A stretch of 64,000 nucleotides of DNA, from the NCBI GenBank assembly GCA_003152105.1, contig PLZJ01000002.1:6188-70187 (forward strand). Direction: 5' to 3'. Positions 16,858 through 62,866 of the stretch are shown piece after piece (positions within the stretch are counted from its first letter, which is position 1; each line of letters starts with the position of its first letter). Under the pieces are notes generated by a model that searched no databases, was not told the origin of the DNA, and worked only from the letters and a program-made list of their open reading frames with translations. The translations under genes and the position numbers were made by a program. This DNA comes from Candidatus Levyibacteriota bacterium (lineage in GTDB: Bacteria > Patescibacteriota > Microgenomatia > Levybacterales > UBA12049).

Positions 16858-16858
16858 T

Positions 16859-17875: not shown

Positions 17876-17946
17876 CATCTTATTTTTTGCGCTATTGACA
17901 AGCTTGCATCCTTTATGAAATTATATAATAGATTATATTAAACTTA

Positions 17947-19416: not shown

Positions 19417-19431
19417 TGTATATAATAAATT

Positions 19432-20451: not shown

Positions 20452-20526
20452 GTATTCCCCTAACCTGAGACAATTAATACTCCGTTTTCTAAATACCAAG
20501 AAAATATAAAGATATCAAACTATATA

Positions 20527-25200: not shown

Positions 25201-28200
25201 TGGCAATGGTGGAGCTGGAGGAAGTAATGCATCGGGAAATGGAGGATTCGGAGGAAATGGTGGAGGTCAACTAATTTTGGCAGGTAGTGGTGGCACAGGT
25301 GGAAATAGTACTCTTGCAAATCAATCAGGTGGATTTGGAGGACAAGGCGGAACTTTGGGTTTTGTAACTGGAAATGGAGGAAATGGTGGAAGTGATACTG
25401 CAGGATCAGGTGCTGCAACAAGTAATGGTGGAAATGGTGGAAATGGTGGGGATTTTAATCTTATTTTAGGCACTGGTGGACAAGGAGGAAGTTCGCATGG
25501 ATCTTCAAGTACGATCGGCCTTGGAGGAAATGGAGGATCTGTCTATCTACAAGCTGGAACTGGTGGAACTGCTGGCGCAGCAGGTAATGGCATAAATAAT
25601 GATGGACTTGGCGGAAATATAACAATTGCAGGTGGAACTGGAGGTTCTAGCACTCTTGGTACATTTGGTAATGGAGGAAAAGTGTATATTTATGGTGGCC
25701 TAGCAGGATCTGGAAGTGTTGGAAACGTTGTACTTGCTCAAACATCAGCAGGTGTAAATCAAGGTAATGTGGGAATTGGACAAGCAAATCCTACTTCTAT
25801 ACTCGACATTGGAACAGTAAATCCAACTATCCAAGCAGATAGTTCAAATACTAATTTAGCTTTATCAACAAATGGAACCGGTAGCCTATTTATTGATACA
25901 ACTGCTGCAGGAAATATTAAGATAGCGAGTAATGCTGCTCTACTTTCTTTGGGTAATTCTACTCACCTAACTACACTTCTTGGAAATAACATATATAATC
26001 CAAACATTACCGGAGCAGGAAATACAGGAGGAGTTTTCTATGATGCAAACAATCAAGGTTCACTTGCGGTTACTGCTGCTGGTTCTAATGGAAACTGTTT
26101 GTTATCTGGTGGAGCAGGTGCGCCAACATGGGGCAGTTGTGGATCAGCTGGCGGTAGTTATTGGCAACTAAATTCCAATGTAGTTTCTCCAGTTCAGAAT
26201 TATTTTGATCTATCTGTTGGCGGAACTGCAACTGCATCTGCTCCATTTCAAGTATTTGCAAGTAGAAATCCTTTAACCTTTACCCCAGCTGGGACAATAT
26301 CAACACTTGGAAACATACAGGTTGCAGGAGTTGCATCTTCATCTGCTTTAGCAGTTGGATATGGGCAAAACCAAGTTCAATCAGGTAGTGGAAATGCAGT
26401 GTTTTCTGGAAACGTAGGCGTAGGAACAAACACTACATCTAATGCACAACTTACAGATCAACTTTCATCATATACCCTCTTAAATAGTTTACAAGTTTAT
26501 TACAAATTTGATGAAAATAGTGGAACTATCGCCAATGATGCAACTGGCAATGGTAATACAGCTACATTAAATGGGGCAAATATTTGGACTTCAAGCGGGA
26601 AGATTAATTCAGGCTTACAACTAGATGGTTCAACAAATTATGTTAGCACCAACTATGTAGGTCCGCTTGGAAGTAATGCAAGAAGCGTAAATATATGGTT
26701 TAAGGGCTGGACAACTACTGAAAGAACTATATGGAATTACGGAGGCGCTGGAACTGCTGGAGCTTTAGATTTTGAAGAAGGGATTGGTGGAAATGGAAAT
26801 AGTATTGGATTTCGAACTGGTGGTGGAGCATATGGATATTGGACTACTAGTCTTACAAATGATGGACTATGGCATATGCTTACAGTTACTTATGCTGCTG
26901 GTGGATTAGAAAATACTATTAAACTTTATCTAGATGGCGTACAACAAAATAGTCTTACTGATAATTTTGGTGGAAATACCGTTAATACTACCTCAGGAGT
27001 ACTCACAATGGGTGATATTACTGGTACTGGAATATCCGGACTTGATGAATTTGCAGTTTGGGGAAGATCGCTTACATCTGCTGAAGTTACTCAACTTTAT
27101 AATAGCGGTTCAGGAAAACAATATTCCTTTACATCATTATTACAATTATTAAGTAATTCAGGTTCTGTCTTATCTTCTTTTAATGGCGCTGGTTCTTTAG
27201 GAATTGGAACTATCGCACAAAATGCACTTGATGTTTTTGGATCTGCGGCATTTGGTTCTTATGCTGGAAATCAATATGCACCAACCAATGGTCTTATTAT
27301 TTCTGGAAATGTGGGAATAGGAACAAGTAGTCCATCAGGGCAACTTCAAGTTTTTGGATCAAGTAATAATCCGACTGCTTCAATTTCTGCTAATTCTGCG
27401 TATACTGGCCTACTTGTAGATAATTCAGGCGGGACAAGTGCTCAAGGATCAATTTTTACTGCTTCAACTTCAGGCATAACTAAATTTACCGTTAACAATA
27501 ATGGACTTATTTTAGTCGGTACAAATTCAACTACTAATCCAGGAACCTTATCAGTATATGGAACCATACAAAGCAATGGCATTGCTAACGGTGGGACAGA
27601 TTTTCTCGCACTTGGCTTACCTTCTACTCCTACTGGACTACCACAGTATTTAGGTAATTGGCAAAGCACTCAGGCATGGGCTCTTGGGCCAATAAGTAAT
27701 TCTTCGACAGATAAAACCGTATATTTAGGAATAGCTTCTAATACTACAGGCACTTGGAATGGTGCAAGCTATGCAAACTTAAGTGTTGGTGGCAATGTAG
27801 CTGTTGGCTATCATTATCCCTCCTTTACTGGTATTGCATCACTTATCGTAAATCAACAAACCGGAGGTGCAGATCTAATTACTGCATCAGCTTCAGGTAC
27901 AACTAAATTTAATGTTGATAATAATGGAGATATAACAATAGCTGCAGGTTCATATATAGATACAAATGCTGGGGGCACTCTCTCTATAGGTACAAATAAT
28001 GCTACAACCCTTAATCTTGCAACAAATACCAATGTCACTGCCCTTTCAATTGGAAATGGCTCATCAGTTGATAAAATCTTTGGTTCAGGAATAACAACAA
28101 ATCAAAATAGCGTTCTTTACCTTGGTGCTGCTAATCAGCTTGGAGCCGCAACAACTGGTTCTTCAAATCTCTGCCTTGTTTCGGGAGCGAATACGCCAAC

Positions 28201-31200
28201 TTGGACAGCTTGTTCTGGGGTATCTTCAAACTATTGGATACAAACAAATGGAATTGGTGTAGCAAATGGTGGCTATACCGCTCTTGGAAATACCACAACT
28301 GATCTATTGATTGGTGGGACTTCAACTGCTTCTGCTGAATTTGCAGTACTAAACGTAGCGCCAGGTCTTACGCCAGTTGCTTCTGTTTCTGCAGGATCAT
28401 CTGGAACTGGAACCACAGAAAATTCAGGTATTTCACTATCTGCTAATGGAACTATACAAACTGTAGGAAGAACAACACTTACCGTTGGAGGCAATACAAC
28501 AGGAGATATATTTTTCAATCCTGGCGGTGTCGGACTTGGAAATTCTCTTTCCATAGATGTTGGTGGAAATGTAGGAATTGGTATGAATAATGGAAACGTT
28601 CCGAATGCACCCTTACAGATAAGGACTGCAATTCCTGATGTCAGCAATGGAACTGACATAAATATCACTGGAACCATGAGTTCTTTAACTAATGGTCAAT
28701 ATGGAGCAAGAATCACACCCCAACTTGGCATAAGCTCTAATCCTGCTAGTAATTTGTTTGAGTATGGGGCCGAAAACTCTCCTTCATTTAATATGGCAAA
28801 TACAGGAGTTACTTTTTCTAAAGTATTTTTAGTAGGCTCTGATGCTAATAATTTTCTTTCTGGAAATGGCATTCTTGGAACTTCAATCGGTTTTCAAACC
28901 GAAACAACACTAAATAATGATACAACTCGTGTTACTAATGCAATTGGATTAAATGTAGAAGGAATAGTAAAAAATTGTTTAACTTGTGTAGTTGGTAATA
29001 GTACGGGCATTGATATATTTGATCAAAGTGGTCTTGCCACAAATACAGCCAATCTTGTTATTAATACTAGTGGTACAGTACCAACTGGAAATTACAGTAT
29101 ATATAATGCAAGTTCACTACAAAACTATTTTGCAGGCAATCTTGGTCTAGGCACAGTTAGTCCAACTGCACAACTTCAAGTTGTTGGCACTAACTCTCCT
29201 ACTGCTTCTATTTCAGCAAATTCTGCGTTTACTGGTCTTGTCGTAGATAACAAAGGTGGAACAGCAAATCTAGGCGATATATTTACAGCATCTGCCTCAG
29301 GACTAGCTCGTTTCACGATTGCAAATAATGGAAATCTAACGTTAAATGGATCAACATATACAACAAACAACAATAGTGTTCTTTACACCAATGGGTCAGG
29401 AAATCTTCTTGCTGCAACAACAGGTTCTTCCAACCTCTGTCTTGTGTCTGGAGTATCTGCACCAACATGGACAGCTTGTTCAGGAGTTTCAAGCAACTAC
29501 TGGATACAAACAAATGGTATTGGGGTTGCTGGAGGAGGTTATACCGCTCTTGGAAATACCACAACAGATTTACTCATAGGTGGAACCTCCACTGCATCAG
29601 CTAAATTTGCAGTCTTAAACGTTGCACCAGGAGGAACTCCTGTTGCTTCTGTTTCAGCAGGAACATCTAGCTCAGGGACAACTGAAAACTCAGGTATTGC
29701 CCTTTCTGCAAATGGATCCATTCAGTCTGTTGGAAAAACAACACTTACTATTGGGGGAAATACCACCGGAGATATATCGCTTAATCCTGGAAATAATGGT
29801 GCAGGCACGCTCTATCTTGCGAGTACTGGTAATATAGGCATAGGAACTACAGCTCCTACGGCTCAACTTCAAGTTGGAGGAGGATTAAGTTCTCCAGGTA
29901 ATATCACAGTATCTTCTATTTCTGCAAATACTAATCAGGCTGGTTTAATAGTTGATAATGGCGGTGGATTAAATAATGCAGGAGCGATCTTTACTGCTTC
30001 TGCAGCTGGTATGTCGCGTTTTACTATTGCAAACTCTGGCAATCTAACGCTTAATGCATCAACTTATACCGCCAATAATATTAATGTTTTATATTCCAAC
30101 TCCTCTGGTAATGTTCTTGCAGCTTCAACTTCAACCGGAAATCTTTGTCTTACATCAAATAGTGGAGGTACTGCGGCTGCATGGGGCAATTGTTCTTCAG
30201 CTTCTAGTAACTACTGGCAGCTAAGCGGCAATGTTCTTTCCCCAGGACTTTTATCTGATGATTTAGTTATTGGAGGAAGCTCAACTTCTTCTGCGGCATT
30301 TCAGGTGTTTTCAGGTAAAAAAACATATGGAGCCATAACAGAACCAGCTGGAACTGCGTCTTCCTCTGGAGACTTATCTTTTGGAGCAGCAAATGGAACA
30401 ACGCAAAATTTAAATATATTAAATGGTAACTCATTTCAAATCAGAACTTCACCAGGTGGACCAGAAGGATTACTCGCTACTCCTGCACTGTATGTTAAAA
30501 ATAATGGCAACGTTGGCATTGGCACAGTAGCTCCAGCTTCAAAACTTGAGGTAAATGGTGACATTTCTTCAAAAAATACTTCTGTACAAGGATATGTATA
30601 TGCATACGATACTTCAGGATCACATTATGTGAGAATGTATAACGACGGTACAAACGGATACGTATCGCTTAGCGATGGAGCGACATTAGGGATTTCTTCA
30701 AATACATATGTCTTTACGCAAACACAACAATATTTTAGAGCTCAAGGAAACACCTTTACAAATTATGTTGGCTTACAAGATACAGATGCAACTGGAGGAA
30801 AACTTACAACTTCATTTGCAAATTTAAATATTAATACTGATATGACAACAGTGGTTAATACTACCGGAACAAATGTATCAGATATATTTGCTGCTTCAAG
30901 TTCTGCAACTACAAGATTTGTGATTAACTCAAATGGAAATGTTGGGATTGGCACTTCTCAACCAGGAGCACAGCTACAGATTGTAGGCACCAATGCGCCG
31001 ACGGCTTCCATTTCAGCAAACTCCGCCTATGCTGGGCTGGTTATTGATAATAAAGGAGGAACAAACAATGGCGGCGACTTGTTTACTGCGTCTTCTGCAG
31101 GACAAACTCGATTCAGAATTGCAAATACTGGTGCTGCCTTATTTCAGGGAGATACTTTAACTTCAATTGGTAATGGTGCTCAATATAATGGAAGTAATGC

Positions 31201-42891: not shown

Positions 42892-42943
42892 ATCACAAAG
42901 GTCGACTCGACCTAGATCTAGCTTCTGCTAGATATCCTGAATT

Positions 42944-43112: not shown

Positions 43113-43124
43113 TAGAGTAGGAAT

Positions 43125-44054: not shown

Positions 44055-44059
44055 AACCT

Positions 44060-45757: not shown

Positions 45758-45760
45758 ACT

Positions 45761-49761: not shown

Positions 49762-50535
49762 TTATTTACTACTAGTTCCTAAAATAATAACTATTGAGGC
49801 GTTTGGAGGAGCAATTTCTCCTTGTGGCATTTGACTTATTGTTCCATTAAGACCTTTTGCTAAGGTTTGTGCTTGCGTTGTTTGGTTTCCGCTAATGTCA
49901 ACAATAATTGTTGTAGTATATGTACTCTTTACTGCATTTCCTTTACTTATGACATTTGCTGTGGGATCTGCTGTTTTTAATTTATCCTCGATAGTTCTTG
50001 TAAAGCCTACAATTTGTGTCCCATTTAGCAAAGCAACAGAAACTTTTTGAGGAGTTGGACTACTTCCTTGAGTTGTTTGCTGAGTGCTTTGCGTTACTCC
50101 AAATGGCCCAACATTTACTAACTTATTTGTTGTTGGATCGTAAATTATTGCTTTTTTTGCGTTTGCATATATTAACACCTTATCTCCATTTTTTGCGTTT
50201 GTAAAAAACAATTGTCCTTTTAATTTACTAATATCTGTAATAGTAGCTATTGTAGGTACTTCAGAAGGTAAATCGATTAATTTGCCGACTTCTTCAATAA
50301 CCTGATTAGTTTGCGCAGCAGGAGTACTTAATTTTGTTTTCTGATTTTGTACAAAAAAATATACGCCTATAATAATTAATAGGAAAAGTACTAAAATTCC
50401 AAACAAAAATAGTATTGTTCTAAATGGAAATTTTTGCTGCACTTTGCCAGTTGCAATAACCTCTTCTTCGAAAAATGAAGTTACTACAACTGGCGCACTA
50501 TCTTCTTTTTTTGCAGCTTTTTTCCTTACCGGCAT
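49762..50535 (-). CDS. Membrane-anchored LytR_C-domain protein
   Basis: N-terminal basic region plus TM. C-terminal 'KVSVALLNGTQIVGFTRTIEDKLKTA...ASIVIILG' matches the LytR C-terminal domain pattern. Confidence 0.55.
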   Translation of the reverse strand: MPVRKKAAKKEDSAPVVVTSFFEEEVIATGKVQQKFPFRTILFLFGILVLFLLIIIGVYFFVQNQKTKLSTPAAQTNQVIEEVGKLIDLPSEVPTIATITDISKLKGQLFFTNAKNGDKVLIYANAKKAIIYDPTTNKLVNVGPFGVTQSTQQTTQGSSPTPQKVSVALLNGTQIVGFTRTIEDKLKTADPTANVISKGNAVKSTYTTTIIVDISGNQTTQAQTLAKGLNGTISQMPQGEIAPPNASIVIILGTSSK

Positions 50536-50926: not shown

Positions 50927-53900
50927 TTAGTTTGTACTGCTCACCTCCTTTCCATCAGAAGTTACCGTTTTAGGATTATCAACACTTACTGCTTGCCAAG
51001 AGAAATACACATTATTAGAAGCTGATTTATCAAGTAATATCTCAAATCCTTTTGTACTTATATTTGTAACGACATAATGAATATTTTCAGAAAGCAATAA
51101 GTTATTAATGGTATTTTGGCAATCACCAATGCTCTGCGAAACCACACAAGTATTGCTTGCGATTTCATTTTTATACTCTTGATCTGTTAACTGAGGCGTA
51201 GAAATTGAAATTGATACAACAGGTGAATTATCATATGGCTTACTAAAGTTAACCTGCACTTTATTTGCATTTTTATTTACAACAGCATATCCTGCAGTAT
51301 CATTATTGAATGTTGCTCTACCACTAAACTGTACATCTTTATGAAAAACAACATTATCAAAGAAATCAGATATTCCAGTAACAATAAGATTATGGGTAGT
51401 AATTGTATCCACTACGCTTAGGACTCCTTCAAATAAACCTCCCCCTTGTACGTCAAGCTCATTTTGTACAAGCGTCATTCCACCACTTGAGGTTAATGAT
51501 GAAGCAATTGATCCAGATGTTGATGCGTTTGGCAAAATCAGAGATGCAAATTGTGCACTGAGTGTACTTGTTTGATTAAAAAGAGAAAAAGATGCTTCTA
51601 GGCTTGCAACGCTTGATTCTAGATTTGCAATTCTATTTAAAAGTACTGTTGAATCTTGTGTAGCAGAATTAGTTGCATTTTTAGAATTAAGCAAACTAGT
51701 AAGCCCCACTATTTGATCTGCATGTATAGATTTTGCGTAAATATCTCCAGCAAATATCGCGTTACCGTTAGAATCTATTGTTAAGGCTGCACTGCTTGAT
51801 GCATCCGATGCAATTATTAGCTTATTGTTTTTACCAATAGATATAAGTAAATCAGAATTTGGCTGTGCTTCAATTTGTCGGGTCATAATGTCTTGCGTTA
51901 CTACTCGAGGAGCTATTACAGATTTTGAAGCAATAAGTTGATCAGCATACACCTGAGATAATCCGCCACTTTGCGTCGAAGCATCACTATTAGTTTGATC
52001 AACTAGTTTACCAAGTGTTTGTAGATCAGAAGTTTGTTGCGATTGACTATCTAAAGTCATACCAACTGGAGAATCGCCATCGACAAATGACCCATTAAAC
52101 GTTGCTGCTTTTATAAATGCAGTAATTTGACCCACTCCTGTGCCGCTATATGATTCCATTGCTTGACCAATTACAGGTCCTGCTTTTATTGCTTTTGCGG
52201 CAACGCCTGGAATTGAAGATGAAGTTAAGTAATCTCCTGGCTTGATGTCTCCATTTTCAGTAGTTACATTTACTGGTACGCGTCCAGAAAGCGCTATTGG
52301 TATTGCCTCACCCCCATTTATTGTTGAATCAGCTTGAGATAATCTAATTCCCGGATTTGCAGAAAAAACACCAATGATATGTTGATCAAATGGCTGTGAC
52401 TTATCTACAAACGTACCTTCATTTGGATCAATACTAACTACATCACCGGGCTGAAGTGTTGTATCACGAGTACCATAATCTTCAGCAACGTCATAAGCTC
52501 CAAAGCTTGTTGTTATGCCATGGTCAAAAACGAATTGACCTGTTGATTGCGATCCTTGATACACACTCGCAGATTGTGATGCAATAAATGAAATAGAACC
52601 GGTATTAAAAAATCCATTTTGCTCAGGTGATTGTGATGTTGATGCATGGAATACTAATGAATATGATTGGTCAAGCGTATTAGTATACTGATATATCTCA
52701 GCACTTCCACTCATTTTTTCTGTACCTGCAAATAAACTACCATTATATGGCTGTAACACAGTTACGCCATCAATTGCAGTTGTACACGTACCATTGTTAC
52801 ATTGAGCATTTGTTGGGCCACCTATTTGACCAGCAGCACCTTGAGAAACACGTGTCCAATTTGTGTCACCATCATAACGATAAACTTCAGCTTTTCCTCC
52901 TGGATCATTAGAATTTCCAATGAGCGTTCCGATATATAACTTATTGTTATATACAGCCATTGACGAAACTTGATCAATTGATCCTGTGCCTCCAGTAGCA
53001 ATAGTACCTTGAGCTGATGAAACTATTACAAAATTTGTAGCAGTTTGACTAGCCCATGTATTCGAATCGTCAACCCTCATTACTTCAGCTTTTGCTTTTT
53101 GAGTAGTGCCAAAGTATACATGTCCATTCCATTCAGCCATTGCAGTAATTCCATTAACCGTAGTGTCTGGAGGAGAATTACCTTCTGCTACCCATGAGCT
53201 CGTACCTCCAACACCGGTGCTATATACATAAATTGCTCCTAATCCAAATTTGTTAACACCAATATATAAAAGATTATTAGCAACTACCATTGCTGCAACC
53301 GCATCATAAGCTGCAGAACCACCTTGAACAATCGTTCCAGGTACACTGTCAATTGCAGTCCATGTTGTTCCCCCATCATAACGATAAACTTCTGCTCGAC
53401 CATTAGTAGTCCCTGTACCAATAAATAATTTACCGTCATATACTGCCATAGCAGTTATTGCATTAATTTGCGTAGTACCACCACTTCTTATGGTTCCTGC
53501 AGTAGCTTGAGATATGACAGACCAGTTTGTACCATCATATTGGTAGACTTCAGCTCCTCCTGGTTTTGAAGTTCCGACAATCAATCTATTGTTATAAACA
53601 GTCATTGCAGAAATCGTTGAAATATTTGTGGTAGTTAAAATTTGACCTGGTGTTGTTGTTGAAATTCTTGCCCAAATTCCTGTACTACCATTATATCTAT
53701 ATACCTCAGCCGCACTATTTTTTGCGGTTCCAACATAAAGACTTCCGTTATAAACGGTAGATGCTGATATAGAGGCAATACCTGAAGAAGCAGCGGTTGA
53801 AAGTTGTCCAGCTGCATTTGAAACTGCTGTCCATGTCTGAGTTGCAGCAGCAGCTGTATTTGCCTGACTACCAATCATGATATTTCCGCCTTCTACATCC

Positions 53901-56900
53901 AATTTTTGCGCAGCACTTGAAGTACCGATTCCTATGTTTCCATTTTGTTGTATCACAAACTGAGTTAATCCAGAAGATGAAGCGGTAAATAAATCTCCTA
54001 GTCCATTATTATTCACTACAAGCGAAGCGAAAGAAGTAGTTCCAGATACTGAAGCAACAGATAATGTTCCACTATTTCCTCTAATATCAAAATTGGATAG
54101 AGGTGTCGAAGTACCAAATCCAAATCTCGTTGTTGCGCTAGAGGTGCCTATCAAAACATTTCCGTTTGCATTGATACGCAAATCCCCTTCACCAAAAACT
54201 GAGGAATCCCAATTGGTACCAATTTCAATAGCATTTTGTGAAGTTGTTCCTACACTCGCTTTTGCTAAACCATCGATAAATAACCCATCTGTTGGAGAAT
54301 TTATTATCCCTCCTACGCCTGTTGGAGTTATTCTTATGCCACCAGCTAATCCACCCGTAGCGGTATTATTGTTGTTTATGATAGATTTAAATCCAGAAAT
54401 AATATTTCCTGATGCAGGTTTTACATTCCACGTAGTTTGAAGTGCATTAATTCCTGATACAGTTGGTTCTTGCCCTACTACATTACCAATATCTACCAAA
54501 TCGTTAGCTGGTAAAAATCCAGCATCTATTTCTAGATTTTGCGCAGTAGGTCTTAAATTACCGATTTCAACTACACCACTATTTGTAATAGTAAATCTTG
54601 TAAGACCTGATGACGAAGCAGTGAATATGTCTCCTGCCCCTTTATTATCGATCAATACTGCTGCAAAGGACGTTTTGGCTGAAATGCTTGAGGCAGGTGT
54701 CGTTCCAATTGTTGAGCCAGCAATACCTAAGGCACTTGCTGCGTTAATATCAAATTGACCATTCATAAATCCATCTGGCGTTTTTCCAGGAGATAGATTT
54801 ATAATTCCAAAGTCAGCGGAAGCAGTAGAAACACCACCTATAAGAAGATCTGTTGTAGTATTACCAAGTGCTGTATATCCTCCATTCGCAACACCTATAC
54901 CACTTTGTTGTATCCAATAATTAGGCCCCTGAGAACCGGTAGCGCAACTTCCCCATGATGGCGCAGTACCTGTTCCTCCCGATACTAAACAATTTCCGTT
55001 TGCTGCCGTGGTTGCAGCGAGTATATTACCTGAAGAGTTAGTATATAGAACGCTATTATTACCCGTAGTATACGTAGCACCATTTACCGTTACGTTTCCG
55101 TTATTGTTAATAATAAAACGAGCAAGTCCCGAAGTAGATGCGGTAAATAAGTCGCCTTTACCGGTATTATCAATAACAACAGATGCAAATGAAGTTGAAC
55201 CTGAAATTGATGCAATTGGAAGAGTGCCAAAATTAGCAGCAGTAATATTATTAGCGGCTGCAGAACGAATATCGAGTGTTGCTAGTGGTAAATTTGGACT
55301 CGCGTTATTTAATGTTAAAAATCCAGGCAAATACGTTTGTCCGTTTTGTATCGATACCTCCCAGTTAGAATTGTTTGAATAATAAAACCCTGGACTATAT
55401 GTATTTCCATTTGTATCAACCTTAAAACTTCCACTATCTGTTTGTATTGCATTTTTCGAGGGCACTCCCCCATTATTTGCACCTGGAATTTCTAAGTAAG
55501 CCTGCGGATTTACTACTCCTATCCCAACATTTCCGTTATTTTGTATAACAAAGCGAGTAAGCCCAGAAGAGGAGGCAGTAAATATATCACCCAGATTTGC
55601 TGTTCCTCCTTTGTTATCAACTACTAAACCTGCATAGGCAGAATTTGCAGAGATAGACGCAGTTGGAGCATTGGTTCCAACAATCTGAAACAATGAAGAT
55701 GGAGCTGTTGTACCGATACCAAGATTACCAGCTAGATAATTTTGATAGGTTGATGAATCATAGATTCCATAGTTACCTGATGGCACCGATTGTGTCCCTA
55801 AAAGAGCAAGTGTGTTGTTAGTTGCAGCAGATAGACCAACAACATTAAGTCCTGCTTGATTGGTAACCTCACCTCCTGAAAAGGATTGAGCGTCTTCAGC
55901 AAAAAAGCCAATATTTGTTCCAACTATTCCAGTATAGGTACCATCATTCTTAAGCTTAGAATCAACGATATAAACCGTAGAAACACTATGCGAGGTTCCA
56001 GACAAACGAATATTAGTTTGTGTTCCATAGATTCCTCCCCCACTTACCAAATCTACCCCAGGAACAAAGGCAGCTTGATTTCTTATGCCCTCTGTTTGCG
56101 CATCTGCATTCACATTTATTGTTGGGGCAATAAGGACACCTTGACTTGTACCAGCTGCCGTATTACTTACTGTGACGCTTCCATTAAGAGTTAAGTCAGA
56201 TGTGACTGCTGAAGTTCCTGTTGCAGATCCTCCTAGTAAAATAACTGCCGTATTTGAAACAGTCCCGTTAACATTTAATGGGTTAGGTGGGTTCGTTACA
56301 TTAACTCCTATGCCAACATTACCATTACTGGTAAGAATAAGTGAAGATTGTCCTCCTGGTTTGAATTGTATGTCTCCTGTTGTAGAACCTCCAAGCGTTA
56401 ACATGGTTCTTCCAACAGTTTGCACATCTCCTCCTGCGTCAATATATACTCCTGACTTTTCTGAAGTTCCTGAAGAAGAAAGACCTGCAGAAACAGACGC
56501 AGTTGGTAGTCCCCCACCAATGACATTAAGAACTGAGAATTCTGCAGAGGAAGTAGCAGTACCACCAATGAGAAGATCTGAAGTTAGATTACCAAGAGCA
56601 GTATATCCTCCGTTGGAAACACCAATACCTGATTGTTGTATCCAGTAATTAGCTCCTGCAGTACCACTACCGCAACTTCCCCATGTTGGCAATCCAGTAC
56701 CGTTTGTTGTTAAACAAGTTCCCGTTGCAGCAGCTCCTGTTACTGCTTGGCCTAAATTATTTGAACTATCGACATAGAGTACCGCATTGGAATTTGATGA
56801 TCCTCCTCCAAAGCCAGGTAATTTTATAGTGACACCAGATGATCTACCCAAGGTAATTTGATTTGAATTCGCACCTGCGAGTAGTAAAGTATTTGAACCA

Positions 56901-57643
56901 TTGGTATCTAATGAAAGTCCACCTGCAGCATTTGGTTGAAGCAGTACGGGAGTAGTTCCTGTAATTGAAAGACCATTATATGTTTTGCTAGTCAAATTTT
57001 GCGCTGTTGCTAAATCTACAAGTGAGATTGAACCAGTAGTAGGTAATGTTGCATTTGTAGTACCTGAGGCAGTAAAAGTTAATGTGCTTCCAGAAGTATT
57101 TGCAAATGCTATCGTTGAACCATTTGCAACTTGTAAAGTTCCAGATGTACTAGCATTTCCAGAAGTATCTTGTACAGTTAATCCAGCTACGGTTTGAGAA
57201 TTAAACGCATACGGAACAGCTGTAAATTGCACTCTAGGACTCATCTCGCTATCACCAGTATTAGTTCCATTTTGGTCTTTTGTTATCTGGATTCCCAAAT
57301 ACATTCCAGACCAGTTGAAGTTAATACTTGCTGGAAGTGCCGTAGTCGCTCCCAAAGGTACTCGAAAAATTCCATTCGTCGTCGTAACGCTATCTGTTTC
57401 AGTCCAAAATTGAGTTCCAGATCCAACATTTGGGTTATTATAAATACTAAAAACTACTGTGTATGTTCCATCTGGTACATTTGTTCCATCAGATTTTACT
57501 AATTTTCCTTGAAAATTAATTTGTGGATTTATCCCTGTTGCTGAAAAAATTGGGTATGGTAAATATCCAAAAAAGAGAGATATAATTAACATACTCCAAA
57601 AAGAAAAAAATACTAAATGTTTTGCAAAAATATGTCGTAACAT
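50927..57643 (-). CDS. Giant (2238 aa) secreted/surface protein, paralog of the 22277..33631 protein. It lacks the recombinase-like N-terminal domains but shares the N-proximal domain, Cys-loop modules, 'GN(V/L)GIGT...AQLQ...ASISANSA...FTAS.SG..RF' modules and the C-terminal module.
   Basis: Signal peptide/TM 'LVFFSFWSMLIISLFFGYLPYPIFSATG'. aa ~30-160 align with giant-1 aa ~420-545 (FQG.L.D..G.P...LW.E...V.V.NG.F...LG). C-terminal 'AYDVAEDYGTRD...GDVVSI...IPIALSGRVPVNV...GDYLTSSSIPGVAAKA' aligns with the giant-1 module. Confidence 0.8.
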   Translation of the reverse strand: MLRHIFAKHLVFFSFWSMLIISLFFGYLPYPIFSATGINPQINFQGKLVKSDGTNVPDGTYTVVFSIYNNPNVGSGTQFWTETDSVTTTNGIFRVPLGATTALPASINFNWSGMYLGIQITKDQNGTNTGDSEMSPRVQFTAVPYAFNSQTVAGLTVQDTSGNASTSGTLQVANGSTIAFANTSGSTLTFTASGTTNATLPTTGSISLVDLATAQNLTSKTYNGLSITGTTPVLLQPNAAGGLSLDTNGSNTLLLAGANSNQITLGRSSGVTIKLPGFGGGSSNSNAVLYVDSSNNLGQAVTGAAATGTCLTTNGTGLPTWGSCGSGTAGANYWIQQSGIGVSNGGYTALGNLTSDLLIGGTATSSAEFSVLNVIGGGLPTASVSAGLSSSGTSEKSGVYIDAGGDVQTVGRTMLTLGGSTTGDIQFKPGGQSSLILTSNGNVGIGVNVTNPPNPLNVNGTVSNTAVILLGGSATGTSAVTSDLTLNGSVTVSNTAAGTSQGVLIAPTINVNADAQTEGIRNQAAFVPGVDLVSGGGIYGTQTNIRLSGTSHSVSTVYIVDSKLKNDGTYTGIVGTNIGFFAEDAQSFSGGEVTNQAGLNVVGLSAATNNTLALLGTQSVPSGNYGIYDSSTYQNYLAGNLGIGTTAPSSLFQIVGTNAPTASISANSAYAGLVVDNKGGTANLGDIFTASSSGLTRFVIQNNGNVGIGVVNPQAYLEIPGANNGGVPSKNAIQTDSGSFKVDTNGNTYSPGFYYSNNSNWEVSIQNGQTYLPGFLTLNNASPNLPLATLDIRSAAANNITAANFGTLPIASISGSTSFASVVIDNTGKGDLFTASTSGLARFIINNNGNVTVNGATYTTGNNSVLYTNSSGNILAATTAANGNCLVSGGTGTAPSWGSCATGSQGPNYWIQQSGIGVANGGYTALGNTTTDLLIGGVSTASADFGIINLSPGKTPDGFMNGQFDINAASALGIAGSTIGTTPASSISAKTSFAAVLIDNKGAGDIFTASSSGLTRFTITNSGVVEIGNLRPTAQNLEIDAGFLPANDLVDIGNVVGQEPTVSGINALQTTWNVKPASGNIISGFKSIINNNNTATGGLAGGIRITPTGVGGIINSPTDGLFIDGLAKASVGTTSQNAIEIGTNWDSSVFGEGDLRINANGNVLIGTSSATTRFGFGTSTPLSNFDIRGNSGTLSVASVSGTTSFASLVVNNNGLGDLFTASSSGLTQFVIQQNGNIGIGTSSAAQKLDVEGGNIMIGSQANTAAAATQTWTAVSNAAGQLSTAASSGIASISASTVYNGSLYVGTAKNSAAEVYRYNGSTGIWARISTTTPGQILTTTNISTISAMTVYNNRLIVGTSKPGGAEVYQYDGTNWSVISQATAGTIRSGGTTQINAITAMAVYDGKLFIGTGTTNGRAEVYRYDGGTTWTAIDSVPGTIVQGGSAAYDAVAAMVVANNLLYIGVNKFGLGAIYVYSTGVGGTSSWVAEGNSPPDTTVNGITAMAEWNGHVYFGTTQKAKAEVMRVDDSNTWASQTATNFVIVSSAQGTIATGGTGSIDQVSSMAVYNNKLYIGTLIGNSNDPGGKAEVYRYDGDTNWTRVSQGAAGQIGGPTNAQCNNGTCTTAIDGVTVLQPYNGSLFAGTEKMSGSAEIYQYTNTLDQSYSLVFHASTSQSPEQNGFFNTGSISFIASQSASVYQGSQSTGQFVFDHGITTSFGAYDVAEDYGTRDTTLQPGDVVSIDPNEGTFVDKSQPFDQHIIGVFSANPGIRLSQADSTINGGEAIPIALSGRVPVNVTTENGDIKPGDYLTSSSIPGVAAKAIKAGPVIGQAMESYSGTGVGQITAFIKAATFNGSFVDGDSPVGMTLDSQSQQTSDLQTLGKLVDQTNSDASTQSGGLSQVYADQLIASKSVIAPRVVTQDIMTRQIEAQPNSDLLISIGKNNKLIIASDASSSAALTIDSNGNAIFAGDIYAKSIHADQIVGLTSLLNSKNATNSATQDSTVLLNRIANLESSVASLEASFSLFNQTSTLSAQFASLILPNASTSGSIASSLTSSGGMTLVQNELDVQGGGLFEGVLSVVDTITTHNLIVTGISDFFDNVVFHKDVQFSGRATFNNDTAGYAVVNKNANKVQVNFSKPYDNSPVVSISISTPQLTDQEYKNEIASNTCVVSQSIGDCQNTINNLLLSENIHYVVTNISTKGFEILLDKSASNNVYFSWQAVSVDNPKTVTSDGKEVSSTN

Positions 57644-58141: not shown

Positions 58142-58567
58142 ATGCAAAGCATCAGCAAAAAAGTTTATATAACTCCAAGTGTATTTTTTGCATTTATTGA
58201 TAGAGCGCATCCAAAATATCAAACAGCAGGTGCTTTTTTTCGTTATTTTGCTCTAGAACAATATGCTTTATATTCTGACGCAATTTCTATAAGCAATACC
58301 TATTCCGAGCTATATGACAAAATATCACCTTCACTTGCTAAAGATTTTCTAAGATCGATTTACATTGGATCATTTAATATTCTACATCCTGAAGAAAGTG
58401 ATATGAAAGCTGCACTCAAAACGCTGGTAAATTACCGTACAACTGATCTTACTTATCCAGAATCAGTAATTGCTGTTTTAGCAAATAGAAACCGTATTCC
58501 TCAAATATGCTCGTTTGAATATCTACATCCTCTATTTGGTTTATCTTTATTTTATTTACCAATATGA
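58142..58567 (+). CDS. Hypothetical 141-aa protein immediately downstream of the HTH gene (possible degenerate PIN-like partner)
   Basis: 2-nt gap after the HTH gene. N-terminal 'KVYITPSVFFAFIDRAHP' loosely resembles a PIN beta1-alpha1 segment but lacks the first catalytic Asp. Confidence 0.3.
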   Translation: MQSISKKVYITPSVFFAFIDRAHPKYQTAGAFFRYFALEQYALYSDAISISNTYSELYDKISPSLAKDFLRSIYIGSFNILHPEESDMKAALKTLVNYRTTDLTYPESVIAVLANRNRIPQICSFEYLHPLFGLSLFYLPI

Positions 58568-59649
58568 AATATATTTTTATATTTATATTCCTTCTAATGA
58601 TTCTGGCATCACCAGTGCTTGCAACGAGTTATACACCATCTAGCACCCACTATCAGATTCGAGAATATGGATTCGGTGCAGGAGGAACTGCAACTTCATC
58701 ATCGCAAAGATATAATCTATTTGGCACTGCAGGTGAAGTTGAATACGGATCTCAAAGCTCAACGCTTTATGTGCTTAATTCTGGCTTATCATACGTAAAT
58801 CAAGCAAATGTACCTCCTGCACCTACGGTTTCTAATCCTTCAAATTTCTACAATCAATTACAAGTTACGATAAACACAACAGGCAATAGTCCAACTGATA
58901 CTCAATATGCAATCGCAGTATCTACTGACAATTTTGCGACATCAAAATATGTACAGATAGATCATACTATAAATAATACTATCGCATGGCAAACTAATGC
59001 ATCATGGATTGGAGGCAACAGCTATGTAACATTAATTGGTCTTACTCCAAGTACGACTTATTATGTTAGAGTTGCAGCAAAACAAGGAAGCTTTTCGCAA
59101 ACTCAATTTGGACCAATAGCAAACGCAGCAACTACAAGTCCTTCGATTTCGTATTCTATGGGGGTTGGATCTTCTTACCCAGGTGTAAACCCACCTTATG
59201 CAGTAAGCATAGGCACAATTAATGCTGGGGGTATTACAACCGCTACAAATAATGTTTATGTAAATTTAAGTACAAACGCAAATGCAGGGGGTACAATATA
59301 TATCTACGATGCAAATGGCGGTTTACTGAGCCCTACTGCGGGAGGATATGTTCTACCGTCAATAAGCGCTGATCTTTCGTCAGGATCAGTTTCAGAAGGA
59401 TACGGAGCGATTTACAACACCACATCTCAAACCTCAGGAGGTCCAATGGAAGCTCTTTCACCATTTAACGGATCAGGAAGTGTTGTTGGAAACCTACAAA
59501 CTACGGTTCAAAGTATGTTTGACTCAACAAGCTCACCGGTTACTGGAGGACAAGTATCATTTACGCTTAAAGCAAAAGCAAAAAATACAACTCCAGCTGC
59601 AAATGATTATTCGGACACCTTAACAGTGCTAGTCGCTGGTTCATTTTAG
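58564..59649 (+). CDS. Secreted surface protein with an FN3-like domain and a WxL-like/aromatic C-terminus (paralog of the cluster-A proteins)
   Basis: Signal peptide. N-terminal 'S..Y.(I/L)' triple repeat homologous to the 16045 protein. FN3-like 'LIGLTPSTTYYVRVAAKQ'. C-terminus 'TPAANDYSDTLTVLVAGSF'. Confidence 0.45.
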   Translation: MKYIFIFIFLLMILASPVLATSYTPSSTHYQIREYGFGAGGTATSSSQRYNLFGTAGEVEYGSQSSTLYVLNSGLSYVNQANVPPAPTVSNPSNFYNQLQVTINTTGNSPTDTQYAIAVSTDNFATSKYVQIDHTINNTIAWQTNASWIGGNSYVTLIGLTPSTTYYVRVAAKQGSFSQTQFGPIANAATTSPSISYSMGVGSSYPGVNPPYAVSIGTINAGGITTATNNVYVNLSTNANAGGTIYIYDANGGLLSPTAGGYVLPSISADLSSGSVSEGYGAIYNTTSQTSGGPMEALSPFNGSGSVVGNLQTTVQSMFDSTSSPVTGGQVSFTLKAKAKNTTPAANDYSDTLTVLVAGSF

Positions 59650-59733
59650 TTTTATCTTAATTATGAATTATTATTTTGAATTCCATTACTTGACAAACAC
59701 AACCATAATCAACAATACTATTAATACTAGGTT

Positions 59734-60852
59734 TTGAATCCAATGAATTATCTGTCCAAATTATCATCTAATTTCCGAGTAAATAAAAATATGGGTCGCA
59801 AAAATATAGTTGCTGTAGCGATAATATTTGCGCAAATCATAGTCCTCGCACTCTACCAATATGCACTACCCACAAAAGCAAACGCAACAAACTTTGCATA
59901 CCTTCGACTAGATAGACTTTCAGCATCCACTTCACTTCCTTTAACAGGAACTGTTTGTCTTCAACCACAAACAACAGGAACCCAATCCCAAATTGTTGTA
60001 CAATTTCCAGCAAGCTTCACAGTAAGCGGTACACAAGGCAACTGGAGCGTAAATACAACTAACTTACCTTCAGGAACAACAGCGTGGCCTGGTATAACAG
60101 GTCCTTCCGCAGGAGCAAGTATTTCTGGAACTACTGTCACATTCGCAGGCTATGCACTTCTATCCACTTCAACTACTTATTGTTTTAAGTTTTCTGGAGG
60201 AACTGCTGTTCAATCAAATCTCGGATCAACTACCGGTACAGTAACAGGTAAAATACAAACATTTTCAGTCACACAACCATTTGCTACAAATCCCGGTGCA
60301 GCAATCGATAATTATAATTATGCGGAAAGCTTAGTTACAAATCCAAATGATGTAATTGCCGTAACTGCAACAGTATCTGCTTCATTTACATTTTCGATCT
60401 CTACTGCCTCAGCTCTATTTCCTTCAACAGGTATTGTAACATCAGGTCATGGCTCAGTTGCAGGACCAACTATTACTGTAACTGCTTCTGGAAATTCTCA
60501 TAATGGGTGGATTGCGTGGGTACAAAGTGCAAATGGAGCATTAAGTTCTCCATCAAGCGGAGGATCTATTACAAGTACTTACAATGCAGGATCTGCAACC
60601 GATTTATCTAGTGTTAATTCAGGATACACGATACTTGCTTCTCAACTGGCAAATAATCCTACGATTGATAATTTCTATGGTACTACTGATGGTAATGGTA
60701 TTGACACAAAATGGGAACAAATTGCACACGGTACAGCACCAACTGCTGGAGATCAATTTTTAATGACACTTAAAGCAAAAGCATCTGCATCTACTCCAGC
60801 TGCAAATGATTATAGTGATACAATATCTGTAACCGGAGCTGGCCAATTCTAA
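59734..60852 (+). CDS. Secreted surface protein, paralog of the 58564 protein with the same C-terminal motif
   Basis: Signal anchor. C-terminus 'LKAKASASTPAANDYSDTISVTGAGQF' is near-identical to the upstream gene's end. Confidence 0.45.
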   Translation: MNPMNYLSKLSSNFRVNKNMGRKNIVAVAIIFAQIIVLALYQYALPTKANATNFAYLRLDRLSASTSLPLTGTVCLQPQTTGTQSQIVVQFPASFTVSGTQGNWSVNTTNLPSGTTAWPGITGPSAGASISGTTVTFAGYALLSTSTTYCFKFSGGTAVQSNLGSTTGTVTGKIQTFSVTQPFATNPGAAIDNYNYAESLVTNPNDVIAVTATVSASFTFSISTASALFPSTGIVTSGHGSVAGPTITVTASGNSHNGWIAWVQSANGALSSPSSGGSITSTYNAGSATDLSSVNSGYTILASQLANNPTIDNFYGTTDGNGIDTKWEQIAHGTAPTAGDQFLMTLKAKASASTPAANDYSDTISVTGAGQF

Positions 60853-60863
60853 CATGCTGTGTT

Positions 60864-61892
60864 ATGCGTAAAAAATTGTATTTATTTTTTTCTTCTTTTT
60901 TTCTTCTTTTCTTATTCACCACATTACCTACATTTGCCCAAAATGTACCCCTTAATATCACTCTTTCCCCCACTTATTTTGATCTAACAGCAAATCCAGG
61001 AGATACTATTTCTAATATAATACGCGTTCGAGCAAATGGTACGTCAGCTATTCCACTGCACATTGTTGTAAAAAAATTAGGTGCAGATCAAAATGGAAAT
61101 CTTACGATACAAGATATTACTGATGATTCAGCTAATTGGATTACATTTCCTAAAACACAGATTACGGCAATTGCACAAGATTGGACCGAGGTACCTTTTA
61201 CTATTAAAATTCCAAAAACTGCAGGATTTGGCTATTATTATGCCATATCTTTTGTAGCTGGTAGTAATCAAACAGCAAATGCGAAAGTTGCTGGAGCTGG
61301 TGCAGTGCCGGTGCTATTAACAGTTAATAGACCTGGTGCAGCAGTAAATGGACAATTAGTTCGCTTTTCGACAGATCATTACATCAATGAATATCTTCCA
61401 ATTAATTTTACATCGGTAATAAAAAGTACAGGTAATATAGAACTGAAACCTCACGGCGATATATTTATAAGAGGTATTGGAGAAAGTGAAATTGGCACCA
61501 TAGATGTTAATCTAAGCCAAGGCATAATTATTCCAGGAACAAACAGAACGTTTAACTCCTCTTGGGATGATGGATTTGTCGTTAGAGAGCCAGTCATTGA
61601 AGACGGCAGACCATTAACTGATGCAAGAGGAAATACAATAACTCATCTTGTATTTCATTGGGATAAATTGACAAGTATTCGAATTGGTAAATACACCGCG
61701 AATCTAATAATGGTTTATGATAATGGACAAAAAGACGTATTGATTGAAGGAACTACGACATTTTGGGTATTACCGTATAAAATAATTGGTGGGGCAATAA
61801 TTCTTATTGTAGCGCTTATACTACTTATACGCTTCCTATTAAAATGGTATGTGAAAAAAGAGATTAAAAAAACATCTAGAAGAAGACATTAG
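60864..61892 (+). CDS. DUF916/DUF3324-like cell-surface protein with a C-terminal TM anchor
   Basis: 'NITLSPTYFDLTANPGDTISNIIRVRANG' closely fits the DUF916 N-terminal pattern (YFDL...PG...). 'TFWVLPYK' then TM then KKEIKKTSRRRH. Confidence 0.55.
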   Translation: MRKKLYLFFSSFFLLFLFTTLPTFAQNVPLNITLSPTYFDLTANPGDTISNIIRVRANGTSAIPLHIVVKKLGADQNGNLTIQDITDDSANWITFPKTQITAIAQDWTEVPFTIKIPKTAGFGYYYAISFVAGSNQTANAKVAGAGAVPVLLTVNRPGAAVNGQLVRFSTDHYINEYLPINFTSVIKSTGNIELKPHGDIFIRGIGESEIGTIDVNLSQGIIIPGTNRTFNSSWDDGFVVREPVIEDGRPLTDARGNTITHLVFHWDKLTSIRIGKYTANLIMVYDNGQKDVLIEGTTTFWVLPYKIIGGAIILIVALILLIRFLLKWYVKKEIKKTSRRRH

Positions 61893-61903
61893 ACTTACCC
61901 ACA

Positions 61904-62866
61904 TTGTATAATGAATTCATGTCAGTATCAAAAATAGTTCTTAAATCGATATACTGCTTAGTTTTTATAGCTTTAATCACATTTCACAATAAACCAGTTT
62001 TTGCAGCGCCTAAAGATACTATTACCGCTATCCCTTCAATTGAACAACTTGATCTTCAAAAAGATAAATCCCAGTATGATTTAACCTATGAAAATACTAC
62101 TTCCCAACCAATTGAGCTTTCCTTCTCTGCAAGAGACTTCTCAGATTTTGACGATGGATGGAAAGTTAGCTTTTTGAGTCAAACAGATGCGAGTAACTAT
62201 CATTACTCACTCTCTTCTTGGATACACTTTAGCACACAAGATTTAGTCGTAAATCCAAACGATTCCAAAAAAATTACAATTTATATTGATAATAATCGAA
62301 TTTCACCCGGAAGTCATTACGCAGCAATACTCGCTTCTCTAAATGATATTGATAGATCTAAGACTATTGGCGTACATGGGGTATTATCTTCTTTACTATT
62401 TGTTACAACAAGCACTGGGTTGGAAGTGGAAGACGCCAAAATAATTGCGTTTCAGCCAATTCGTTATTTCTTTGAGATTCCTGAAAAATATATTTTTAGA
62501 TTTCAAAATCAAGGAAATGTTGACAGTACTCCGTACGGATTAATAGATGTTTATAGCCCATTTGGGAAGCTATTATCAGAAACGGTTGTGAATGATGGAT
62601 CGTTAATTACGCTACCCGAATCAATTAGGCGATATGATTTATTAATTCCAAAACCTTCTGGATTCTTATTCCCAGGCACGTATAAAGCAACATTAACGCT
62701 TCATTATGGAAAGACAAATAAAAAACTTTATACTGAAATCTACTTCTTTTCGCAAGGAAGTATTGATATCTTTATCACTGCATCACTATTAATTATCTTG
62801 ATCATCGCTTTCTATTATTTAAGAAAAACGGGTAAACTTAAGGCATTATATGAAAAGATGAAATGA
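61904..62866 (+). CDS. DUF916/DUF3324-like cell-surface protein (more divergent), C-terminal TM anchor
   Basis: Signal peptide, beta-rich body, C-terminal 'FITASLLIILIIAFYYLRKTGKLK'. Confidence 0.4.
   Translation: MYNEFMSVSKIVLKSIYCLVFIALITFHNKPVFAAPKDTITAIPSIEQLDLQKDKSQYDLTYENTTSQPIELSFSARDFSDFDDGWKVSFLSQTDASNYHYSLSSWIHFSTQDLVVNPNDSKKITIYIDNNRISPGSHYAAILASLNDIDRSKTIGVHGVLSSLLFVTTSTGLEVEDAKIIAFQPIRYFFEIPEKYIFRFQNQGNVDSTPYGLIDVYSPFGKLLSETVVNDGSLITLPESIRRYDLLIPKPSGFLFPGTYKATLTLHYGKTNKKLYTEIYFFSQGSIDIFITASLLIILIIAFYYLRKTGKLKALYEKMK

Follow-up and report, generated by a model that had tools for sequence, protein, structure and literature searches.

A giant protein of a Levyibacteriota bacterium as a probable tail-fibre-like adhesive fibre encoded beside Pam-pilus-like genes

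This analysis concerns giant 2, one of two giant protein genes located in a stretch of 64,000 nucleotides from Candidatus Levyibacteriota bacterium (GenBank assembly GCA_003152105.1, contig PLZJ01000002.1, positions 6,188 to 70,187 of the forward strand). The whole stretch is called the window below, and all coordinates are window positions. Giant 2 is probably an exported, phage-tail-fibre-like adhesive fibre of the Patescibacteria cell, of the same kind as the mosaic adhesive trimer (MAT) fibres of Bdellovibrio; the fibre would be mosaic and probably trimeric. This reading rests on the domain organisation of the protein and also on a genomic context kept in up to 66 of 80 loci, found in Levybacteria, Roizmanbacteria, Saccharibacteria, Berkelbacteria and Moranbacteria.

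Apart from type IV pili, the recently described Pam pili and a few glycan-binding proteins, little is known of the molecules with which Patescibacteria, which live attached to other microbes, choose and hold their hosts. The kind of protein to which giant 2 would belong (phage-derived adhesive fibres, MAT) was already known, and the neighbourhood link was mentioned once, in a 2026 preprint. New here are a domain-level description of a large fibre family of the candidate phyla radiation (CPR), the assembly cassette of G2 rather than S74 type with a lectin-like end, the three head classes, and the pairing of each giant with its own Pam-like gene set. The family combines a base domain related to that of the Bdellovibrio prey-recognition fibres, a phage-type self-assembly cassette, swappable heads and linkage to a Pam-like operon. 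Its members are concrete candidates for host-range determinants; testable sites in giant 2 are D1718 and E1721, the lectin-like domain and the propeller-like region.

Domain organisation of giant 2

Searches with the whole protein against Pfam, PHROG and PDB sequences yielded almost nothing, and the domains of giant 2 were detected by segment-wise and profile searches. The exact protein occurs in public data (P0001), on two public contigs, of which the longer measures 917,863 bp. The features, all on the minus strand, are the following.

50927..57643, minus: giant 2, uninterrupted open reading frame (ORF) of 2238 aa; tail-fibre-like surface protein of the 'headless' class
57545..57643, minus: N-terminal hydrophobic segment, aa 1-33
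57179..57544, minus: N-proximal beta-sandwich, aa 34-155 (NF053851 Bdello_MAT_N match, AlphaFold2 model)
53927..57178, minus: shaft, aa 156-1239, rich in Gly, Ser, Thr and Asn, with repeated Cys-loop, GN[VL]GIG and ASISA..FTAS..RF modules
55526..56941, minus: cassette closest to giant 1, aa 235-706 (matches giant 1 aa 1894-2354 at 45% identity, E 3e-87; DNA identity 68-73%)
56672..56716, minus: Cys-loop 1, aa 310-324, CLTTNGTGLPTWGSC (motif map)
54944..54991, minus: Cys-loop 2, aa 885-900, CLVSGGTGTAPSWGSC (motif map)
52544..53926, minus: propeller-like region, aa 1240-1700; seven tandem repeats of about 50-65 aa, ..AM.VYNG.LY.GT....AEVYRYDG..W
52094..52492, minus: putative phi29 gp12 (Peptidase_G2)-type intramolecular-chaperone domain, aa 1718-1850, beginning at D1718 of a D-V-A-E motif
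51320..52093, minus: linker, aa 1851-2108; low-confidence model with helical (coiled-coil-like) and short beta segments
50957..51319, minus: H-type-lectin-like C-terminal domain, aa 2109-2229 (Pfam PF09458; predicted local distance difference test score, pLDDT, about 90; Foldseek)

The only hydrophobic segment of giant 2 on the Kyte-Doolittle scale spans aa 5-29, and the first 33 residues would be either a Sec signal peptide or a signal anchor. A similar segment is present in the relatives, in which the conserved domain begins after it, at about aa 30-45.

When searched alone, the N-proximal domain of giant 2 matched the NCBIfam model NF053851 (Bdello_MAT_N) with an E value of 2.3e-9 and 37.3 bits over HMM positions 15-86 of 162, the curated cutoff being 60. 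The same model matched all 35 aligned N-proximal domains, the copy in giant 1 included (best E 2.8e-12). By these matches the domain is related, remotely and below family level, to the N-terminal domain of Bdellovibrio MAT fibres. AlphaFold2 modelled the domain confidently as a beta-sandwich (pLDDT 84.7), and comparison of the model with the PDB by Foldseek gave nothing below E 0.03 and generic Ig-like matches only. The domain is very widespread: its profile matched 53,076 cluster representatives with E<=1e-3, and 29,058 of them with E<=1e-10. In the MAT fibres the N-terminal domain is invariant, without PDB homologues and probably cell-proximal, with the variable tips distal (PMC10769870).

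The shaft is described from the motif map, from its composition and from mosaic matches to relatives. No Pfam or PDB sequence match was obtained for it, either in the segment-wise search or with the cassette against the PDB. All eight cysteines of giant 2 and all 16 of giant 1 are paired at a spacing of 3-15 residues, with the sole exception of one giant 1 pair that lies 40 residues apart. Such short-range pairing would fit an extracellular, disulfide-bonded protein.

The seven repeats of the propeller-like region can be aligned with each other. This region has 20 relatives at about 40% identity and none in giant 1; Kelch- or WD40-like Pfam matches stayed below threshold, and the search against PDB sequences was empty. 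The repeats may fold into a seven-bladed beta-propeller.

Of 120 relatives, 83 carry a single D-[LVY]-A-E-x-[YF] motif each, placed at a median distance of 478 aa from the C-terminus; in an alignment of 22 sequences (A2) its D, A and E do not vary. The best PDB match of the A2 profile was 3gqh_A, a chain of 163 aa from the phi29 preneck appendage protein (E 0.043). The motif 'DlAEdY' of A2 aligns with residues 1-6 of that chain, DFAEYF, and corresponds to D692/E695 of gp12. We take the chain to be the released autochaperone beginning at D692, the fragment reported by Xiang et al. 2009. Mature gp12* ends at residue 691 (PMC6542822).

An AlphaFold2 model of giant 2 aa 1700-2238, calculated as a monomer, contained two confident domains; pLDDT fell below 50 at model residues 152-221 and 284-398, with a helix at 300-322. 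The first confident domain matched pre-mature gp12 (3suc) in the PDB by Foldseek with E 1.4e-3 and probability 1.0, and also trimeric phage decoration proteins. In the viral library BFVD its matches, at E 2e-11 to 1e-8 and 25-32% identity, were to tail-fibre-like proteins and to preneck appendage proteins; the latter lay at E 2e-11 to 1e-10 and include entries named 'Preneck appendage protein' with E 9e-11 and 1.2e-10 and 28-31% identity. In one relative, P0059, the motif DLAEYF lies inside a match to Pfam PF11962 Peptidase_G2 (26.9 bits, cutoff 25). Because of the alignment of the motif with 3gqh_A, the fold matches and the PF11962 match of P0059, the D-x-A-E domain is predicted to be an autochaperone of the phi29 gp12 type that would aid trimerisation and cleave the chain at Y1717|D1718 in giant 2; the corresponding site predicted in giant 1 is V3166|D3167. 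Pfam PF13884 Peptidase_S74, the other chaperone model considered, did not match giant 2 and was found among the relatives in P0085 and P0114 only.

Like gp12 of Bacillus phage phi29 (PF11962; 3suc, 3gqh), giant 2 carries in a fibrous protein, near the C-terminus, a domain of this fold with a D-x-x-E aligned to D692-E695. The differences are a marginal sequence match, about 370 residues that follow the domain in giant 2, and a body that is not a beta-helix tailspike. In giant 2, cleavage and ATP-dependent release are putative.

The C-terminal segment alone matched Pfam PF09458 with 25.6 bits (cutoff 24), the whole protein with 20.2 bits. Foldseek returned Helix pomatia agglutinin (2ccv), 4q56, 3wmp and discoidin II (2vme) with probability 1.0, at E 0.016-0.07 and 13-18% identity. 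The domain thus resembles the H-type lectins (Helix pomatia agglutinin, the C-domain of discoidin II; PF09458) in a Pfam match above cutoff and in a lectin fold known to form trimers. It differs from them in its weak Foldseek E values, its low identity and its position after the predicted cleavage site, and sugar binding by it is putative.

Proposed fibre and points that weigh against it

We propose the following arrangement, the hydrophobic N-terminus, the shaft modules and their mosaicism being observed. The Sec-type N-terminus would carry the chain across the single membrane. The MAT_N-like beta-sandwich would form a cell-proximal base by which the fibre is held on the envelope, and the proteins it sits on may be those encoded by the adjacent pam-like operon. 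The shaft would be made up of about 1,100 residues in shuffled modules, rich in Gly, Ser, Thr and Asn and with disulfide loops, presumably as a trimeric beta-structure, and the seven-repeat propeller-like head would be the variable part that binds at the distal end. The last 520 or so residues would act as a conserved assembly cassette, in which the gp12-type autochaperone nucleates trimerisation and probably cuts before D1718; it would be followed by the coiled-coil-like stretch and by the H-type-lectin-like domain, which may trimerise or bind sugar. Giant 1 follows the same plan as a member of a different, equally old class with a SAM-like head, which would be cytoplasmic.

Like the MAT superfamily, the family of giant 2 is mosaic, its members carrying interchangeable distal domains on one shared kind of base. 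The resemblance to the MAT fibres of Bdellovibrio bacteriovorus (Caulton et al. 2024, PMC10769870) extends to a remotely homologous N-terminal domain right after the export signal, a long repetitive shaft, several family members per genome, a C-terminal autochaperone of phage type in some family members, and an organism that lives by attaching to other bacteria. Giant 2 differs from MAT in several respects: the match to the MAT model is sub-threshold and partial; the protein is 2-3 times longer, MAT constructs ending at about residues 627-1,151; a gp12/G2-type domain, followed by a coiled coil and an H-type-lectin-like domain, takes the place of the S74 chaperone; the host is a monoderm CPR bacterium; and sister classes carry cytoplasmic heads of DNA-binding type, which are undescribed for MATs.

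Several results weigh against the proposed fibre. The MAT_N match reached 37 bits against the curated 60 and covered only about half of the model. In giant 2 itself aa 1700-1900 gave no PF11962 match and only one to PF23982 XM1_gp53 (22.5 bits, cutoff 27), PF11962 being reached by a relative only, and the PDB profile match stood at E 0.043. If the chain is cleaved as predicted, the mature fibre would no longer contain the lectin-like domain, which is odd for a conserved domain with a binding role. The models are of monomers and cover the N-proximal domain and aa 1700-2238; the trimer, surface exposure and cleavage are predictions.

The phage-like features could also mean that giant 2 is the tail-fibre gene of a prophage or a tailocin remnant in the chromosome, since phage proteins gave the strongest fold matches of the C-terminal cassette and some relatives carry Peptidase_S74 or G2 domains. 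This is very improbable, in that no PHROG family matches giant 2, its flanks hold no phage structural genes and are occupied by Rho, LeuRS, glycosyltransferases and pilus-like genes, it has an N-terminal export segment, and the chromosomal synteny is kept across several Patescibacteria lineages, as named in record titles. The composition of the protein, which is large, repetitive, low in charge and rich in Gly, Ser, Thr and Asn, together with the LytR_C and wall-related genes nearby, would fit a structural protein of the envelope or of S-layer type that has no particular role in adhesion. We consider this unlikely: a fibre-type assembly cassette, lectin-like and propeller-like domains and tip swapping are hallmarks of receptor-binding fibres and not of lattice proteins.

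Giant 1 and the wider fibre family

22277..33631, plus: giant 1, 3784 aa; two integrase-SAM-like domains and two hydrophobic segments, then the fibre plan as in giant 2

A preliminary description of this DNA, made from the sequence, had proposed that the two giants are paralogs sharing an N-proximal domain, Cys-loop modules and GN(V/L)GIG modules, and that they arose by an old segmental duplication and inversion. Pairwise comparison by BLASTP gave five blocks, collinear along the two proteins.

Giant 2 aa 12-155, giant 1 aa 385-551: 30% identity, 60.8 bits (hydrophobic anchor and N-proximal domain)
Giant 2 aa 207-372, giant 1 aa 1174-1327: 37% identity, 65.9 bits (shaft)
Giant 2 aa 235-706, giant 1 aa 1894-2354: 45% identity, 308 bits, E 3e-87 (central cassette)
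Giant 2 aa 282-505, giant 1 aa 2362-2558: 49% identity, 165 bits (second copy of the Cys-loop module)
Giant 2 aa 1718-2065, giant 1 aa 3167-3525: 31% identity, 112 bits (C-terminal block)

As a control, giant 1 was shuffled 30 times in a way that keeps composition within 50-aa windows; the best score was 26.6 bits. The five blocks, at 61-308 bits, are therefore not low-complexity noise. The homology of the giants was thus borne out, with the N-proximal domain common to both, and it is wider than had been noted, the autochaperone-type domain that begins at the D-x-A-E motif and the C-terminal lectin-like domain having gone unmentioned. Similarity limited to low-complexity sequence, which would have spoken against relatedness, was not what the alignment and its shuffles gave.

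The quoted motifs were found in both proteins. Cys-loops lie at aa 310-324 and 885-900 of giant 2 and at five places in giant 1; G[NK][VLI]G[IVL]G motifs number four in giant 2 and nine in giant 1, and FTAS..G..RF modules four and five. The ends of the giants are homologous as well (hhalign probability 93.7%, E 1.8e-7), though the 'NWWIVN' end of giant 1 looks different. Common to both is a plan that begins with the anchor and the N-proximal domain, continues with shaft modules and closes with the D-x-A-E autochaperone domain and, at the C-terminus, the lectin-like domain. The giants differ in the head, in shaft length and in the distal domain, which is the propeller in giant 2 and a Laminin_G_3 insert with another region before the motif in giant 1.

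Giant 2 starts with its one hydrophobic segment and lacks the head of giant 1, as had been described. The term 'recombinase-like' used for that head held in part: two Phage_int_SAM domains precede two hydrophobic segments, and no catalytic Phage_integrase domain was found there, the N-terminal SAM-like domains alone matching, twice. XerC/D models scored 64-74 bits on the head against cutoffs of 279-335 and covered about the first 100 positions. The hydrophobic segments of giant 1 lie at aa 264-290 and 382-407 (aa 1-407 being encoded by 22277-23497), and the loop between them carries a net charge of +19, so that it is not evident on which side of the membrane the head is placed. At least seven other genomes keep the architecture of this head. 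Within giant 1, aa about 1940-2505 (27956-29790) contain an internal tandem duplication of the Cys-loop cassette; its copies at 28094-28524 and 29360-29790, with 76% nucleotide identity over 434 nt, are the most similar DNA repeat of the window.

A homology search with giant 2 gave 180 relatives of 1200-3900 aa at E<=1e-5. The minority with an organism name were all from Patescibacteria (Levybacteria, Roizmanbacteria, Microgenomates, Moranbacteria and Parcubacteria). Three classes were distinguished by their heads. Headless proteins, with the N-proximal motif at about aa 42, are the majority and include giant 2. In the second class a head of two Phage_int_SAM domains places the motif at about aa 300-490; its members are giant 1, P0059, P0076, P0088, P0091, P0104, P0106 and P0118. 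The third class has a MerR/HTH_17 head followed by a membrane segment. The best relatives of giant 2 differ from segment to segment along the protein, and the tips found across the family include propeller, CBM-like, Kelch, LVIVD, beta-helix, F5/8C and S74 domains.

Within this family giant 1 was the 13th-best match of giant 2, scoring 701 bits, whereas a protein from another genome reached 938. The N-proximal domain of giant 2 is 50-68% identical to those of headless proteins elsewhere and 34% identical to that of giant 1; the N-proximal domain of giant 1 is 42-58% identical to those of headed proteins elsewhere, and giant 2 ranks 61st among its matches. The head, the loop between the membrane segments and the C-terminus of giant 1 likewise have their best matches in headed giants of other genomes. 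From the rank and the class-specific N-proximal similarity it follows that the giants belong to classes that split before the sampled genomes diverged.

The shaft modules gave a different picture. The Cys-loop (64%) and GNL..FTAS (74%) modules of giant 2 are closer to giant 1 than to any foreign protein, and giant 1 is also the closest match of the 'mid' segment, aa 440-640, which has only seven matches in the family. This suggests that shaft modules have been exchanged to some degree within the lineage. At the DNA level the giants are 68-74% identical, at best 73-74% over 150-216 nt, and no word of 17 nt or more is common to both, which argues against recent exchange; recent gene conversion between the giants was rejected on the same grounds.

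A recent or lineage-specific segmental duplication with inversion, in which one giant gave rise to the other and the head was then lost, would account for these close modules and for the paralogous pam-like gene set beside each giant. The rank of giant 1, the separate N-proximal classes and the DNA divergence run counter to it, and so do three features of the loci described below: the giant-1 locus is collinear in another genome, the arrangement of the giants differs on contig JBEKQZ010000002.1, and set A is co-directional with giant 1 while set B is divergent from giant 2. A duplication of this kind is accordingly improbable, and as a recent event it is largely refuted; the old local duplication and inversion of the preliminary description found no support either. 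The similarity of the giants is best read as deep paralogy with module exchange in a large mosaic family, which corrects the idea of a local duplication.

In a search for a diversity-generating retroelement (DGR) acting on the giants, no template/variable repeat pair was seen in the window, its only repeated DNA being the module repeats. In another genome (L083, 18999-19382) a bAvd / 23S_rRNA_IVP gene lies directly after the headed giant P0088, which hints that some family members may be DGR targets.

Genomic neighbourhood and Pam-pilus-like gene sets

The genes on the outer side of each giant, and the gene directly downstream of giant 2, are as follows.

58564..62866, plus: Pam-pilus-like set B, divergent from giant 2, comprising the next four genes
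58564-59649, plus: secreted pilin-like protein, homologue near the fibre gene in 66 of 80 loci
59734-60852, plus: secreted pilin-like protein, homologue in 49 of 80 loci
60864-61892, plus: Ig-like protein with a C-terminal transmembrane (TM) helix, homologue in 63 of 80 loci
61904-62866, plus: Ig-like protein with a C-terminal TM helix, homologue in 55 of 80 loci
57852-58139, plus: HTH_17 DNA-binding protein (HTH_17 E 1.5e-9), adjoining the fibre gene in 28 of 80 loci
58142-58567, plus: conserved 141-aa protein, adjoining the fibre gene in 28 of 80 loci
49762..50535, minus: LytR_C-domain protein (Pfam PF13399), directly downstream of giant 2, downstream homologue in 33 of 80 loci
16045..21423: Pam-pilus-like set A, upstream of giant 1 (16045-16857, 16835-17875, 17947-19416 and 19432-20451, plus; 20527-21423, minus)

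The counts were taken from 80 loci kept out of 245 that were confirmed in a domain-alignment scan of one genome per species. The 245 loci came from Levybacteria, Roizmanbacteria, Saccharibacteria, Berkelbacteria, Moranbacteria and Paceibacteria and from metagenome-assembled genomes (MAGs) with doubtful proteobacterial titles; a contig scan with the whole giant 2 protein as query, unlike the domain-alignment scan, found no relative. In the loci whose coordinates were examined, the upstream homologues stood in the gene order of the window, on the strand opposite to the fibre gene.

Set A (16045-20451) is paralogous to set B, and each comprises, as read from the translations, a pair of secreted proteins and a pair that ends in a hydrophobic helix. 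This fits the architecture of the pam operon, which encodes donor-strand-exchange pilins and membrane-anchored PapD-like chaperones (bioRxiv 10.64898/2026.03.03.709456). Set A matched NF058579 over full length at E 9e-9 and NF058581 at E 2e-4, both below cutoff, and set B matched NF058579 (CPR_pilus_PamT) at E 2e-9, far below cutoff; scores on the Pam models NF058579/NF058581 (CPR_pilus_PamT, CPR_Pam_pilin_C) were 37.2 and 35.0 bits against a cutoff of 240, and 21.3 against 55. WxLIP_PGBD was matched by set A at E 1.5e-7 and weakly by set B. The genes of both sets are at best distant relatives of Pam pilus genes. An interpretation of the accessory genes as a WxL/Csc-type Firmicute surface-complex operon was dropped in favour of the Pam pilus after the NCBIfam matches.

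The preprint by Troman et al. reports a 'tail fibre-like protein' consistently beside the pam operon, in Microgenomatia and Saccharimonadia, naming it only, without domains, classes or paralogy (bioRxiv 10.64898/2026.03.03.709456). Giant 2 shows the same association, and its likeness to that protein is one of genomic association only.

Given the association, the fibre might belong physically to the Pam pilus, as a distal adhesin or as cargo docked by donor-strand exchange. The linkage of the fibre gene to pam-like genes is tight and widespread, a tail-fibre-like protein is central in the pam neighbourhood network of the preprint, and the N-proximal domain is an Ig-like beta-sandwich. Yet that domain is homologous to the MAT domain of Bdellovibrio, and Pam pilins are reported to be exclusive to the CPR; no Pam pilin model matched giant 2; and a trimeric fibre has no obvious fit to a donor-strand filament one subunit wide, the tip of which is already occupied by PamT in the preprint model (bioRxiv 10.64898/2026.03.03.709456). 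We regard a fibre built into the pilus as less likely than a separate adhesive fibre.

The HTH_17 protein and the 141-aa protein have homologues of 55-69% identity beside fibre genes. Over about 40 aa the HTH_17 neighbour is 35-44% identical to the MerR/HTH_17 heads of the third class of giants. The 141-aa protein had no match in Pfam, NCBIfam or the PDB, and a degenerate PIN toxin paired with HTH_17 was unsupported by Pfam, NCBIfam and a 13-sequence profile against the PDB.

More speculatively, the fibre family might sense contact, by coupling an adhesive fibre outside the cell to the binding of DNA. By analogy with ToxR-like one-component regulators, a head of two integrase-SAM-like domains or of MerR/HTH_17 type would be fused to the fibre through a membrane helix; the conserved adjacent HTH_17 gene might serve the headless giant 2 in this capacity, with the fibre on or beside the Pam machinery. 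We give this little credence. If true, transcription would be informed directly when an episymbiont attaches to its host.

The preliminary description had placed the giants in divergent orientation around a ~17-kb envelope-biogenesis region and had suggested a multi-component surface apparatus. The genes are in fact convergent, giant 1 lying on the plus strand and giant 2 on the minus strand with their 3' ends facing each other across 33632-50926. This interval encodes a TPR protein, an M23/LysM peptidase, Rho, two GT2 glycosyltransferases, a DUF11 protein, the LytR_C protein and three proteins with no significant family match, so that envelope biogenesis describes this mixed content only in part. 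A multi-component apparatus is plausible; its conserved partners would be the Pam-like sets on the outer sides of the giants and not the stretch between them.

The bracket formed by the giants was compared with other genomes. Another Levyibacteriota genome (L082) is collinear with the window over the giant-1 locus; the collinear stretch, from 12862-15381 to 40560-41279, comprises LeuRS, the pam-like set A, the headed giant, TPR, M23/LysM, Rho and DUF11, and it indicates that the window is of Levybacteria origin. On contig JBEKQZ010000002.1 of the NCBI collection, from the same organism, the headless fibre starts near 54.5 kb and points away from the headed giant (92.4-101 kb), from which it is separated by about 38 kb, facing opposite to the arrangement in the window. 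The two-giant bracket is therefore not conserved. No headed giant was found within 10 kb of any of the 80 headless-fibre loci.

A promoter and terminator scan was uninformative, with 20 promoter-like sites observed against 26.9 expected. At 44060-49012, between the giants, two large ORFs (565 and 1083 aa) had no significant family match. The 1083-aa product gave a sub-threshold Tetraspanin match (E 0.016), and the 565-aa product looks polytopic and membrane-embedded and may be a protein of glycosyltransferase or polymerase type.

Many species-representative MAGs that bear the fibre (L002, L005-L008, L024, L080 and others) are titled 'uncultured Gammaproteobacteria', 'Bdellovibrionales' or 'Pseudomonadales'. 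These titles are probably wrong and the genomes those of Patescibacteria; Rho of L080 is 84% identical to Rho of the window.

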